The position numbers were made by a program, and so were the translations under genes. A model generated the notes under the pieces. The model searched no databases and was not told the DNA's origin. It saw only the letters and a list, made by a program, of their open reading frames with translations. A stretch of DNA of 64,000 bases from Candidatus Aenigmatarchaeota archaeon (GTDB taxonomy: Archaea > Aenigmatarchaeota > Aenigmatarchaeia > CG10238-14 > SCSR01): positions 1 to 64,000 of the forward strand of contig JAVZHQ010000001.1 in NCBI GenBank assembly GCA_038998335.1, given 5' to 3'. Below are positions 45,632-47,734 of this stretch, piece by piece (within the stretch, counting starts at the first letter, position 1; the number at the start of each line of letters is the position of its first letter).

Positions 45632-46579
45632 ATGGGATCCGAAAGTCCATCAGAAAAAATAAAAATCCGTAGTTTACCTTTAGAAGAAAGAATAAGACTA
45701 TATAACAAAGCAATCGATCTACACAAAAAATATGGTTGGGGATATGTGCGCATAAGCAAAAAACTCTCTGTTCCAATAGATGTTGTCAGGCATTGGTTAT
45801 ATTATGGAAGAATTCCAATTCGCCAAGGGCATCCCCATTTATTTGAGCCAACACCAAGCCCTGAATTAGCATATGTAATAGGAGTTGTTCTAGGTGATGG
45901 AAATTTAAGTCAAAGGAAAAAAAGTGGTGAAAGGTCTGGAAGGGTAATTAGACTAAGAGCAAGAGACAAAGAATTCGTAGAAAAGTTTGCTTTAGCCATG
46001 AGCAAATTGCTCAGAAAGAGAAAACCCTACAAGGTCGTATTTGAAAATAATCAATATAGAGTTTATGGTTATAGCTTTTATCTCTTTGAATTTTTGAAAA
46101 AACAATTCGATACATTAAAACCATTCATCGAAGCTTATCCGACAGAATTTATTAAAGGTGTTGTAGATAGTGAGGGAAGCGTGAAAATAAGTGTCTGGCG
46201 ATGGAAAACTTACAGAGCTTTAACAGTAAATGTGGCTATTACAAATACAAATTTAGAATTATTGTTATATGTTCATGAGCTTTTAAGAAAACATTTAGGA
46301 ATAGAAAGTATTATTAAGCCTAGCTATAAAGCAGGAAGCAAATTTTGGAGGAATGGTAAAGAATTTACTCGCAAAAAAGACATGTATGATTTAGTAATAA
46401 CTAAATTAAATGATGTGAAACTCTTTGCTTCTCGTGTGGGGTTTTCAATAAAAAGGAAACACCAAAAGTTGCTTGATGCAATTAGGATATGTGAAGATTT
46501 CAAATCTGGGGAAGAGCGAACTGAGGCTTGGTTAAAACTTTATAAAAAGAAAAATGGAAGGTGGGCAAGAATAAAGTAA
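45632..46579 (+). CDS. Free-standing HTH plus double-motif LAGLIDADG homing endonuclease
   Basis: HTH (YVRISKKLSVPIDVVRHWL); LAYVIGVVLGDG and FIKGVVDSEG motifs; ITNTNLELL; VGFSIKRK. Confidence 0.88.
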   Translation: MGSESPSEKIKIRSLPLEERIRLYNKAIDLHKKYGWGYVRISKKLSVPIDVVRHWLYYGRIPIRQGHPHLFEPTPSPELAYVIGVVLGDGNLSQRKKSGERSGRVIRLRARDKEFVEKFALAMSKLLRKRKPYKVVFENNQYRVYGYSFYLFEFLKKQFDTLKPFIEAYPTEFIKGVVDSEGSVKISVWRWKTYRALTVNVAITNTNLELLLYVHELLRKHLGIESIIKPSYKAGSKFWRNGKEFTRKKDMYDLVITKLNDVKLFASRVGFSIKRKHQKLLDAIRICEDFKSGEERTEAWLKLYKKKNGRWARIK

Positions 46580-46607: not shown

Positions 46608-47734
46608 ATGAGCGAGAAAATTACGGTATCTTTAATAAAGGCTGACATAGATGGCTCATAGGAGCCAGTGTAAGCAGCCTTGTAGGGCATGGGAGAGTTC
46701 ATCCGGATATAATCAAAACAGCAGAAGAACTTTTACAAAAAGCAAAAGACGAGAATTTAATAATAGATTTTTTTGTCACCAACTGTGGAGACGATTTAGA
46801 ACTTATAATGACTCATCAAAAATTTATAGAGAACCCAGAAATTCATAAGCTTGCTTTTGATACTTTTATGAAATGCGCAGAAATAGCTAAATCCTTAAAG
46901 CTTTATGGAGCAGGCCAAGACTTGCTTAAAACTGCTTTCTCTGGCAATATAAAAGGTATGGGCCCAGGAGTTTGTGAAATAGCTTTTGAGGAAAGAAAAA
47001 GCGAGCCAATAGTTTGCTTTATGGCAGATAAAACAGAGCCAGGAGCCTGGAACATGGCTTTGTATAAAATATTTGCCGATCCTTTTAACACTCCAGGCCT
47101 AGTTATAGATCCGAGCATGCATTCAGGTTTTTCCTTTGAGGTTCATGATTTGTTTGAACATAAAAAGATAAGGTTTTCAGCTCCCTCAGAAATATATGAT
47201 TTACTTGTTTTTATAGGAGCTCCAGCAAGGTACTGTATAAAATCAGTTTTTAGGAACTCAGATAACGAAATTGCAGCTGTTTCTTCTACCGATAGGCTAA
47301 GCCTAATCGCAGGTCATTATGTGGGAAAAGATGACCCGGCTTTAATAGTAAGGGCTCAGTCTGGTTTCCCAGCTGTTGGTGAAATTTTAGAACCTTTCGC
47401 CTTTCCTTATCTTGTAGCAGGAGGAATGCGTGGTTCTCATAATGTTCCTCTCATGCCAGTAAGTTTAAAAGATGCTCATCCTACACGATTTGATGCGCCA
47501 GCCAGAGTTATAGCTTTAGGATTTCAGCTTAATAATGGAAAATTACAAGGTCCGGTAGATTTATTTGATGACCCTGCCTTCGATTATGTAAGACAAAAAT
47601 GTAACGAAATAATGGATTACATAAGAAAACACGGAACCTTTGAGCCTCATCGCTTACCCTTGGATGAAATGGAATATACAACTCTGCCAGAAGTTAGAAA
47701 AAGGCTTGAAAGTAGGTTTGAAAAATTAGGTTAG
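46608..47734 (+). CDS. fbp: Fructose-1,6-bisphosphate aldolase/phosphatase (class V FBPase), join(46608..46650,46674..47734), 367 aa
   Basis: Joined frame reads MSEKITVSLIKADIGSLVGHGRVHP...CGDDLELIMTH...YGAGQDLL...DKTEPGAWN...YVGKDDP...MRGSH...EYTT. The track ORF 46808-47734 lacks the N-terminal metal ligands. Confidence 0.93.
46651..46673 (+). other. 23-nt bulge-helix-bulge (BHB) intron candidate in fbp
   Basis: AAGGCTG-ACAT-AG^A-TGGCTC-ATAG-GAGCCA-GTGT-AA^G-CAGCCTT: 7-bp exon stem, 4-bp central helix, two 3-nt bulges, 6-bp intron stem; removal restores frame and motif. Confidence 0.88.

Follow-up and report, generated by a model that had tools for sequence, protein, structure and literature searches.

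A predicted bulge-helix-bulge mini-intron in the fbp gene of a hot-spring archaeon, and the LAGLIDADG endonuclease gene beside it

The only FBP aldolase/phosphatase gene (fbp) of an uncultivated hot-spring DPANN archaeon, whose nearest named relatives are Candidatus Aenigmatarchaeota MAGs, is broken by a 23-nt insert that has the exact shape of the introns normally cut out of tRNAs. On sequence evidence alone the insert is very probably spliced out of the mRNA, and it seems to move between genomes together with the LAGLIDADG endonuclease gene that lies next to it. The coordinates given here refer to the window, which is the whole stretch of 64,000 nucleotides that was analysed (contig JAVZHQ010000001.1, positions 1 to 64,000, assembly GCA_038998335.1). 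Within the window the relevant features are as follows.

45632..46579 (+): free-standing LAGLIDADG endonuclease gene (315 aa) with an N-terminal HTH-like region and two LAGLIDADG motifs, ending 29 nt before the fbp ATG
46608..46650 (+): fbp exon 1, 14 codons plus the first base of the Gly15 codon
46638..46644 (+): 5' strand of exon helix h (AAGGCTG)
46645..46648 (+): 5' strand of the central 4-bp helix H (ACAT)
46649..46651 (+): 5' bulge AGA, with the predicted cut after 46650
46651..46673 (+): 23-nt BHB intron, holding hairpin h' (TGGCTC/GAGCCA, loop ATAG), the 3' strand of H and two bases of the 3' bulge, and containing TAG 46659-46661
46672..46674 (+): 3' bulge AAG, with the predicted cut after 46673
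46675..46681 (+): 3' strand of exon helix h (CAGCCTT)
46674..47734 (+): fbp exon 2, the last two bases of the Gly15 codon, 352 codons and the stop codon

The frame that starts at ATG 46608 reads MSEKITVSLIKADIDGS and stops at TAG 46659-46661, whereas 46676-47734 is open for 352 codons in another frame. The downstream frame matches FBPase_3 PF01950 at E 1.4e-171 (571 bits) over profile positions 13-361 of 361, aligns to ST0318 from residue 15, matches PDB 3r1m at E 4.5e-143 and, with exon 2 alone, passes the NCBIfam equivalog FBP_aldo_phos (NF041126) at 552.3 bits against a cut-off of 520. Between the two frames the sequence can be drawn as a strict hBHBh' motif, as defined in PMC6379350, in which two 3-nt bulges on opposite strands are separated by a 4-bp helix. 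Here h has 7 bp, H pairs ACAT (46645-46648) with GTGT (46668-46671) and includes one U-G pair, and h' pairs TGGCTC (46652-46657) with GAGCCA (46662-46667). Cutting after the second base of each bulge removes exactly 23 nt and joins 43 nt to 1058 nt, giving 367 codons in which the invariant Gly15 codon is rebuilt across the junction, whilst the unspliced mRNA would give only a 17-residue peptide. The rule for the position of the cuts rests on established knowledge and on an internal control, in that the same geometry and rule reproduce the 53-nt intron that ARAGORN calls in the tRNA-Ser(CGA) of this genome. All of the coordinates in the preliminary description of this locus, which had proposed an EndA-spliced intron in fbp, hold to the base, as does its product length of 367 aa.

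How improbable is such a structure? Folding of 46630-46690 with RNAfold gives -22.4 kcal/mol with a z of -3.39, and 0 of 200 shuffles fold as well, although the minimum-energy structure forms h and h' but leaves the 4-bp H helix open. On a crude stem score this is the best short BHB in the 1.0-Mb genome, where 1 of 2813 candidates reaches 42, but 1 of 6 first-order Markov simulations of the genome also produced one that good. The structure alone is therefore only mildly improbable, and the weight comes from its exact coincidence with the frame break, from the restored Gly codon and from covariation.

The covariation comes from two other alleles that carry a 21-nt insert at the same site, one in a genome of the same genus (G003, where the locus is L014 = L085) and one on a metagenome contig (L115). 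Across the three alleles 49 of 49 cells pair and three pairs change on both sides, one in H and two in h', whereas all 7 pairs of h are invariant. The third pair of H, for instance, is A-U in the window and G-C in the 21-nt variant. There are 0 such changes in six slid controls, and 22 of 500 shuffles reach the observed value, although the comparison rests on only three alleles and two intron variants. In contrast, 56 of 57 fbp loci sampled from genome contigs are continuous at the site and lack the insert. Of 371 genomes of the phylum 141 have fbp, and only the present genome (G000) and G003 carry the insert. Of the partial fbp matches in the phylum, four were retrieved and none is an intron: that in G351 is a 1-nt frameshift, that in G128 is a run of N, and those in G346 and G086 are cut by contig ends.

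A trivial origin for the insert can be considered on two counts. Firstly, since the window comes from a metagenome-assembled genome, and the 100% word match is to a run that may be its own source, the 23 nt could be an assembly or sequencing artefact. However, DNA contigs of three runs (X1, X2 and X3) from two studies bridge the insert with no gap and no joint that skips it. X2, with 37 differences over 1459 nt, and X3 come from a different study, and related inserts occur in two other assemblies, such that an artefact can be all but dismissed. Secondly, the insert could be a random insertion, for example a small palindromic indel, which inactivated fbp and only happens to resemble a BHB. As written the gene does stop at codon 18, a BHB of equal stem score arose in one of the six simulated genomes, and DPANN genomes lose metabolic genes, with 230 of the 371 genomes of the phylum showing no fbp match, although many of these are incomplete. 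Yet exon 2 is intact over 352 codons, with a dN/dS of 0.019 against L050, 0.018 against L051 and 0.028 against L085, the last being a comparison between two intron-bearing alleles, albeit at saturated dS. The insert is kept at the same base in three alleles with compensatory changes and no unpaired cell, and the variant in X2 and X3 has its one difference within the BHB, A>G at 46658, in the loop and keeps exon 2 open as far as its contig reaches. A dead gene is therefore very unlikely.

The enzymes that would be required for splicing are encoded by the genome. EndA (C1:649547-650113, 95 bits) is a 188-aa protein whose best PDB match is 1A79, the M. jannaschii tRNA endonuclease, at E 1.5e-29, and RtcB (C1:120751-122073, 547 bits) is also present. 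The inferred pathway is that EndA cuts the transcript after the second base of each bulge and RtcB joins the exons. A process at translation, with ribosomal bypassing or frameshifting over a hairpin as in phage T4 gene 60, is superficially suggested by the stable hairpin and stop codon that sit just after the last exon 1 codon. No landing site in the DNA would give the invariant Gly, however, since the codon exists only after the two cuts join G 46650 to GC 46674-46675. Moreover, the 21-nt variant keeps the BHB geometry, and the same genome has matching inserts in tRNA genes, where translation plays no part, which leaves bypassing a remote possibility. It is similarly improbable that EndA cuts the BHB without the exons being rejoined, so that the motif would act as a switch that destroys fbp mRNA. 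EndA substrates outside tRNA do exist, as in the 5' UTR of HVO_1309 in Haloferax (PMC7714728), and ligation here is inferred, but without it no full-length enzyme could ever be made from the only fbp copy. Yet the whole gene is under strong purifying selection and the junction is exact to the codon in all three alleles. Overall, the interpretation of the insert as an EndA-type BHB intron in the fbp coding sequence is supported by every indirect test that could be run and is held with high confidence, although cleavage and ligation are inferred from sequence.

What was missed in the preliminary description is the LAGLIDADG gene directly upstream, and this changes what the element most likely is, namely part of a mobile unit rather than a regulatory device. 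Nothing in the present analysis bears on the earlier suggestion that the intron could tie carbon flux to splicing activity. The endonuclease matches Pfam LAGLIDADG_3 at E 1.1e-11, and its closest solved relative is I-DmoI, at E 2.4e-5 over residues 79-210, a match that covers both motifs. The GDG and SEG motifs are invariant in the alignment of the endonucleases. The gene and the intron account for most of about 1.07 kb of extra DNA relative to the syntenic loci L050 (97% aa identity), L051 (same genus), L052 and L053, in which the endonuclease gene is absent. In fact 3 of 3 intron-bearing fbp alleles have the endonuclease gene upstream and 0 of 56 intronless loci in the fbp-first sample do, although 8 of those had less than 1 kb of upstream flank. 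The relatedness of the alleles also breaks just after the intron in L115. L085 against L115 is 0.79 identical in the endonuclease gene, 0.92 in exon 1 plus intron and only 0.60 in exon 2, whereas the window against L085 gives 0.71, 0.81 and 0.84. The fbp body of L115 is closest to L013, at 77% aa, and on the metagenome contig the block of endonuclease gene, exon 1 and intron sits on a very different fbp body.

The pairing of endonuclease gene and mini-intron is not restricted to fbp. In this genome 5 of 7 free-standing LAGLIDADG ORFs sit directly upstream of a gene with a mini-intron, these being fbp, rtcB, alba, tRNA-Cys and a tRNA at C1:650.9 kb, and the LAGLIDADG genes that precede the rtcB and alba mini-introns and the two tRNAs are unrelated. 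The rtcB insert, which is 18 nt long in this genome, lies at the same site in genome G009, which belongs to another genus and has a homologous endonuclease gene upstream (E 2e-130), and in genome G012, whilst the 24 uninterrupted rtcB loci have no such gene upstream.

These observations suggest, somewhat more probably than not, that the intron is one half of a composite selfish element, the other half of which is the I-DmoI-like endonuclease gene that ends 71 nt upstream of the intron. In this scheme the endonuclease would cut intronless fbp alleles at the conserved site that encodes the KAD(I/V)G motif, and repair would then copy the block of endonuclease gene, promoter, exon 1 and intron, with the insert splitting the recognition site in the carrier genome and being dealt with by the tRNA-splicing enzymes of the host. 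There is, however, evidence against a strict link. The endonuclease gene lies upstream of an intronless fbp in L116 and L117, and homologues lie downstream of fbp, antisense, at five intronless loci (L011 = L054, L013, L057, L061 and L119), with a further weak hit at L010. G012 has the rtcB insert with no endonuclease gene detected in 1.4 kb upstream, the endonuclease ORF of G003 is frameshifted near its 3' end, and since G000 and G003 are congeners their shared state may be a single event. ARAGORN calls introns in 19 of the 46 predicted tRNAs of this genome, and only two intron-bearing tRNA genes have such a neighbour, tRNA-Cys, which is one of the 19, and the tRNA at C1:650.9 kb that ARAGORN missed, so at least 18 of the 19 calls have none. 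It thus remains possible, though less likely, that the intron is spliced but that its neighbour is unrelated to it, being either a free-standing selfish gene or a domesticated HTH-LAGLIDADG regulator that merely prefers the fbp neighbourhood.

In the papers that could be searched, BHB introns in coding sequences are documented for one gene only, cbf5, as is stated explicitly in PMC7714728, and a 2025 paper (PMC12397907) still cites only the cbf5 work. The preliminary description had also named cbf5 as the documented precedent. No report linking such introns to free-standing LAGLIDADG genes was found in those searches. The intron in the cbf5 (pseudouridine synthase) pre-mRNA of Crenarchaeota (Yokobori 2009, PMC2738675; see also Watanabe 2002 and Yoshinari 2006) is likewise short (16-44 bp), bounded by a BHB, removed by the tRNA-splicing endonuclease (which for fbp is inferred) and gained and lost among relatives. 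In fbp, the gene is that of a core gluconeogenic enzyme, the lineage is DPANN and the motif is strictly canonical. Yokobori 2009 notes that the cbf5 intron is too short to encode a homing nuclease and gives no route of mobility, whereas here the neighbouring endonuclease gene and the cassette-like transfer onto a divergent fbp offer a testable route by which such introns are gained. The HVO_1309 intron of Haloferax volcanii (PMC7714728) is, as inferred for the fbp intron, an mRNA substrate of the archaeal splicing endonuclease outside tRNA and rRNA, but it lies in an untranslated leader, while the fbp intron interrupts the reading frame, so that splicing is obligatory for any product. The short archaeal tRNA introns (PMC6379350; for DPANN EndA types see PMC5829648) share the motif, the inferred enzymes and a similar size range, but in fbp the host RNA is an mRNA and both strands of the flanking helix are coding sequence.

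With regard to mobility, the archaeal rRNA introns that encode LAGLIDADG homing endonucleases such as I-DmoI (PMC2738675) also combine BHB splice sites with a two-motif LAGLIDADG enzyme and presence/absence polymorphism. There the endonuclease ORF lies inside the intron of an rRNA gene, whereas here the intron is 23 nt, lies in a protein gene, and the ORF is free-standing upstream, with 0 candidates found for a BHB that encloses the whole ORF. The arrangement therefore resembles a free-standing endonuclease partnered with an intron, as in the collaborative or trans homing of T4-like phages, for instance mobE with the I-TevIII intron (PMC2790892), in which an endonuclease gene outside the intron would promote co-conversion of flanking DNA. 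Those are self-splicing group I introns in phage genes with HNH or GIY-YIG enzymes, while the present intron is inferred to be of the protein-spliced tRNA type and lies in a cellular archaeal genome.

A broader hypothesis, about as likely as not, is that BHB mini-introns in archaeal protein genes arise as the immunity half of free-standing I-DmoI-like homing endonucleases. The enzyme would target a highly conserved coding site near the 5' end of a gene, the short insert would split that site in the DNA of the carrier and the tRNA-splicing enzymes of the host would erase it from the mRNA, with the block moving by gene conversion between even very divergent alleles, as seen here for fbp at 60% nt identity. 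The same logic would hold for rtcB, alba and tRNA genes in one genome, and would give a concrete mechanism for how tRNA-type introns enter and spread in protein-coding genes. With fbp, annotation pipelines would report a truncated or frameshifted gene and so misjudge the gluconeogenic capacity of the organism. With rtcB, the ligase that would be needed for splicing then depends on splicing for its own synthesis.

In genome-wide scans for further mRNA introns, criteria that were too loose for a 33% GC genome returned mostly low-complexity noise, and ranking by structure alone recovers fbp (score 42) and alba (38) but puts the rtcB insert (23), which is validated by homology, in the noise. A scan for bacterial promoters and terminators is not informative for an archaeon. 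Finally, for the two remaining endonuclease ORFs, at C1:546 kb and C1:509 kb, no intron-bearing partner was found, and both converge on protein genes, one of which appears by eye to be Nre-like and the other a Hef-type helicase.

Every coordinate in the preliminary description, which had proposed a canonical bulge-helix-bulge (BHB) intron inside the gene for an FBP aldolase/phosphatase, is right. From ATG 46608 the frame reads 17 residues and stops at TAG 46659-61, whereas the frame from 46676 is open for 352 codons to the stop at 47732-34. This downstream stretch is a full-length fructose-1,6-bisphosphate aldolase/phosphatase that lacks only its first dozen residues: it matches PF01950 at E 1.4e-171 over profile positions 13-361 of 361, scores 552 bits against a cut-off of 520 with the NCBIfam equivalog FBP_aldo_phos, and is aligned by Sulfolobus tokodaii ST0318 (3r1m) from its residue 15. 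The features at this locus are as follows.

45632-46579, same strand as fbp: ORF for a two-motif LAGLIDADG protein, ending 29 nt before the fbp ATG
46608: ATG of fbp, from which the frame reads 17 residues
46638-46681: the 44 bases that fold on paper as a BHB
46651-46673: the 23-nt insert, lying between the predicted cuts after 46650 and 46673
46659-46661: the TAG that closes the first frame
46676 to the stop at 47732-47734: the downstream frame, open for 352 codons

Within 46638-46681 the outer helix h is formed by AAGGCTG paired with CAGCCTT, the central helix H by ACAT paired with GTGT, and the inner helix h' by TGGCTC paired with GAGCCA, closing the loop ATAG, with AGA and AAG as the two bulges. 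The order h-H-bulge on the 5' strand and H-bulge-h on the 3' strand is the canonical one (BHB definition from PMC6379350), and the same layout, with a cut after the second bulge base, reproduces the 53-nt intron called by ARAGORN at position 37 in the tRNA-Ser(CGA) of this genome. Cutting after 46650 and 46673 removes 23 nt and joins G to GC, so that the invariant Gly codon of the N-terminal motif is rebuilt and the product has 367 codons. RNAfold gives -22.4 kcal/mol and a z of -3.39, with 0 of 200 shuffles as good, although it predicts h and h' but not the short H helix. By a crude stem score this is the best short BHB in the 1.0-Mb genome, where 1 of 2813 candidates reaches 42. However, 1 of 6 first-order Markov simulations of the genome produced one as good, and the fold by itself is therefore weak evidence. 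What makes it strong is where it lies and what relatives show, for it sits exactly on the frame break of a conserved gene and its cut sites are exact to the base.

The genome (here G000: 9 contigs, 33% GC, 90% complete) has a single fbp locus. Among 41 related genomes, G000 included, 14 have fbp and 12 of these are continuous at the site, whereas G003, a genome of the same genus, has a 21-nt insert at the same base with its own in-frame TAA. A search of species-representative genomes returned 57 fbp loci with the N-terminus present, of which 56 are continuous and 1 is the G003 contig. Across the phylum 141 of 371 genomes have fbp and only G000 and G003 carry the insert, as far as the matches were inspected; of four other broken matches that were retrieved, one is what looks like a single-base frameshift with no intron (G351:C2, about 835160; locus L122), one is a run of N (G128) and two are cut by contig ends. 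A metagenome contig, L115, adds a third intron-bearing allele, again with 21 nt. When aligned, the three alleles pair in 49 of 49 cells, and the 23-nt and 21-nt variants differ by double changes in three pairs, namely A-U to G-C in H, and U-A to C-G and G-C to A-U in h'. None of the six slid controls shows any double change, and 22 of 500 column shuffles reach the observed values; the sample is small but fully consistent. Exon 2 is under strong purifying selection, although dS is saturated, with dN/dS values of 0.019 against L050 and 0.018 against L051 (two intronless fbp loci) and of 0.028 between the two intron-bearing alleles.

The insert is not an artefact. Three sequencing runs hold contigs that bridge the site: X1, which may be the source of the window; X2, from a different study, with 37 differences over 1459 nt; and X3, from the same study as X2. 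All three bridge 46651-46673 with no gap, and no contig skips it. Inside the BHB, X2 and X3 differ from the window at one base, 46658, which lies in the hairpin loop.

The enzymes required for removal of such an insert are encoded by the genome. EndA is present as a 188-aa protein, whose best solved relative is the M. jannaschii tRNA endonuclease 1A79 (E 1.5e-29), probably of the alpha4 homotetramer type. It has a 6-residue insertion in the C-terminal domain, which may correspond to the 'L3' loop reported in DPANN alpha4 enzymes with disrupted tRNA genes (PMC5829648). RtcB is present but carries two in-frame TAA codons, which lie in an 18-nt in-frame insert (G000:C1:120826-120843, outside the window; L019:1827-1844 in the rtcB locus) between the Tyr and Gly of its conserved HFGY-GFPIGG motif. 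Here the fold is a relaxed BHB, in which H has 2 G-U pairs and h has only 2-3 bp, followed by a 13-bp outer helix. The splicing ligase would then need splicing to be made. ARAGORN calls introns in 19 of 46 predicted tRNAs, some of them doubtful.

The preliminary description missed the ORF at 45632-46579. Its product matches Pfam LAGLIDADG_3 and its closest solved relative is I-DmoI (E 2.4e-5), the homing endonuclease of an archaeal rRNA intron. In the syntenic relatives L050 (97% aa identity in fbp), L051, L052 and L053 the divergent upstream gene abuts fbp; about 1.07 kb is extra in the window, most of it the endonuclease gene and the 23-nt intron. All three intron-bearing alleles have a homologous gene upstream, whereas none of the 56 intronless loci of the fbp-first sample does, although 8 of these had less than 1 kb of upstream flank. 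No BHB encloses the endonuclease ORF, so it is free-standing rather than intron-encoded.

The telling case is the metagenome contig L115. Its fbp body is only 54% identical in protein to that of the window and is closest, at 77%, to L013, the fbp locus of genome G001 (G001:C5), yet its endonuclease gene, exon 1 and intron resemble those of G003. Nucleotide identity of L085, the G003 locus, against L115 is 0.79 in the endonuclease gene, 0.92 in exon 1 plus intron, and 0.60 from 8 nt past the intron onward, whereas window against L085 runs the other way, at 0.71, 0.81 and 0.84. A block consisting of the endonuclease gene, the short promoter region, exon 1 and the intron has thus been placed on two very different fbp genes, with the break in relatedness falling just after the intron, and this is what homing with co-conversion would leave behind. 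Comparison of L013 with the window, L005 and L014 also shows that within one genus fbp comes in two deeply different types: the copy of G001 scores 499 bits where that of G005 scores 598 and that of G000 576, which, together with its closeness to exon 2 of L115, suggests replacement of the gene by a distant allele. G001 also has an endonuclease homologue downstream of fbp, antisense.

The same pairing is found elsewhere in the genome. PF14528 gives 31 matches in G000, most of which lie in very long open frames (793-2046 aa), several per frame, for instance at C1 439-442 kb, 534-537 kb, 711-715 kb, 132.5-133 kb and 76.8-77.4 kb; these are taken to be inteins and suggest multiple inteins in a 1-Mb genome. 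Seven matches lie in free-standing ORFs, and five of the seven sit directly upstream, on the same strand, of a gene with a mini-intron.

fbp: intron 71 nt after the stop of the endonuclease gene
alba, C1:675450-675480, minus strand (L018:2951-2981 in the alba locus): strict 31-nt BHB intron at codon 17 with a 10-bp h' helix, 51 nt downstream of a 265-aa LAGLIDADG_3/NUMOD3 gene; exon 2 matches Pfam Alba at E 2.8e-18
rtcB: insert 221 nt after the stop of a LAGLIDADG_3 gene (279 aa) that overlaps the rtcB start
tRNA-Cys, within C1:370897-371646: a 217-aa LAGLIDADG_3 ORF overlaps the 5' end of the tRNA gene, which carries a 31-nt intron and is directly followed by a cysteinyl-tRNA synthetase-like gene (named by eye)
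tRNA at C1:650828-650914, within C1:650828-651699, minus strand: a weak LAGLIDADG-like ORF runs into a tRNA gene that Rfam scores at 30.9 bits and ARAGORN misses; the 7-nt 5' acceptor strand is duplicated, a 17-nt BHB holds the stop codon of the ORF, and the endA gene lies about 700 nt further on

The other two (C1:546 kb and C1:509 kb) converge on protein genes, and no intron was found there. For rtcB the pairing recurs outside the genus, since genome G009 has a 20-nt insert at the same site and a homologous endonuclease gene upstream (E 2e-130). Genome G012 has a 29-nt insert but no such gene in 1.4 kb upstream, and the 24 uninterrupted rtcB loci have none upstream. All three protein-gene introns lie in highly conserved motifs within the first 80 codons, which is where an upstream ORF and the target site can share one conversion tract.

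There is, however, evidence against a strict link between endonuclease and intron. L116 and L117, from one metagenome, have the endonuclease gene upstream of an intronless fbp whose site reads KCD rather than KAD. Homologues lie just downstream of fbp, antisense, at five intronless loci (L011 = L054, L013, L057, L061 and L119), and there is also a weak hit at L010. The endonuclease ORF upstream of the 21-nt fbp intron of G003 is itself frameshifted about 37 codons before its end (L085:2140-2345) while the intron is intact, which could be decay of the endonuclease after fixation or a sequencing error. Furthermore, at least 18 of the 19 intron-bearing tRNA calls of ARAGORN have no endonuclease neighbour. 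These observations fit a homing cycle of invasion, fixation and decay, with other ways of protecting the carrier's own site, but they also leave room for the view that the neighbour is coincidental, a view that is considered unlikely though by no means excluded.

Taken with the exact in-silico junction, the compensatory changes and the purifying selection, the insert is very probably a real intron of the known tRNA type in a new gene and a new lineage, with splicing inferred from sequence rather than observed: EndA is inferred to cut in both bulges and RtcB to ligate, with the 23-mer released, probably as a circle. It is also probably, though by only a slight margin, one half of a two-part mobile element, in which the endonuclease is inferred to cut intronless alleles at the conserved site and the insert to protect the carrier. 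There is no evidence for the regulatory tie between splicing and carbon flux that the preliminary description had raised. With respect to what is already known, cbf5 has been stated to be the only reported additional BHB intron in an mRNA, to which one in a 5' UTR was then added (PMC7714728), and a paper of 2025 still cites only the cbf5 work (PMC12397907). No description of coding-sequence BHB introns beyond cbf5, nor of a link to free-standing LAGLIDADG genes, was found in the literature outside subscription journals and supplementary files. The rRNA introns are mobile through encoded homing endonucleases, whereas the cbf5 intron is too short to encode one (PMC2738675), and trans or 'collaborative' homing by a free-standing endonuclease is described for T4 mobE (PMC2790892).

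Finally, a BHB-like motif at G000:C1:163037-163118, minus strand (h 5 bp, H 4 bp, all A/T-rich, score 37) encloses the entire tRNA-Glu(CTC) gene, with the acceptor stem acting as h'. This could be chance, since simulations reach 37-44, although it could also be an EndA-based end-processing or circularisation signal.
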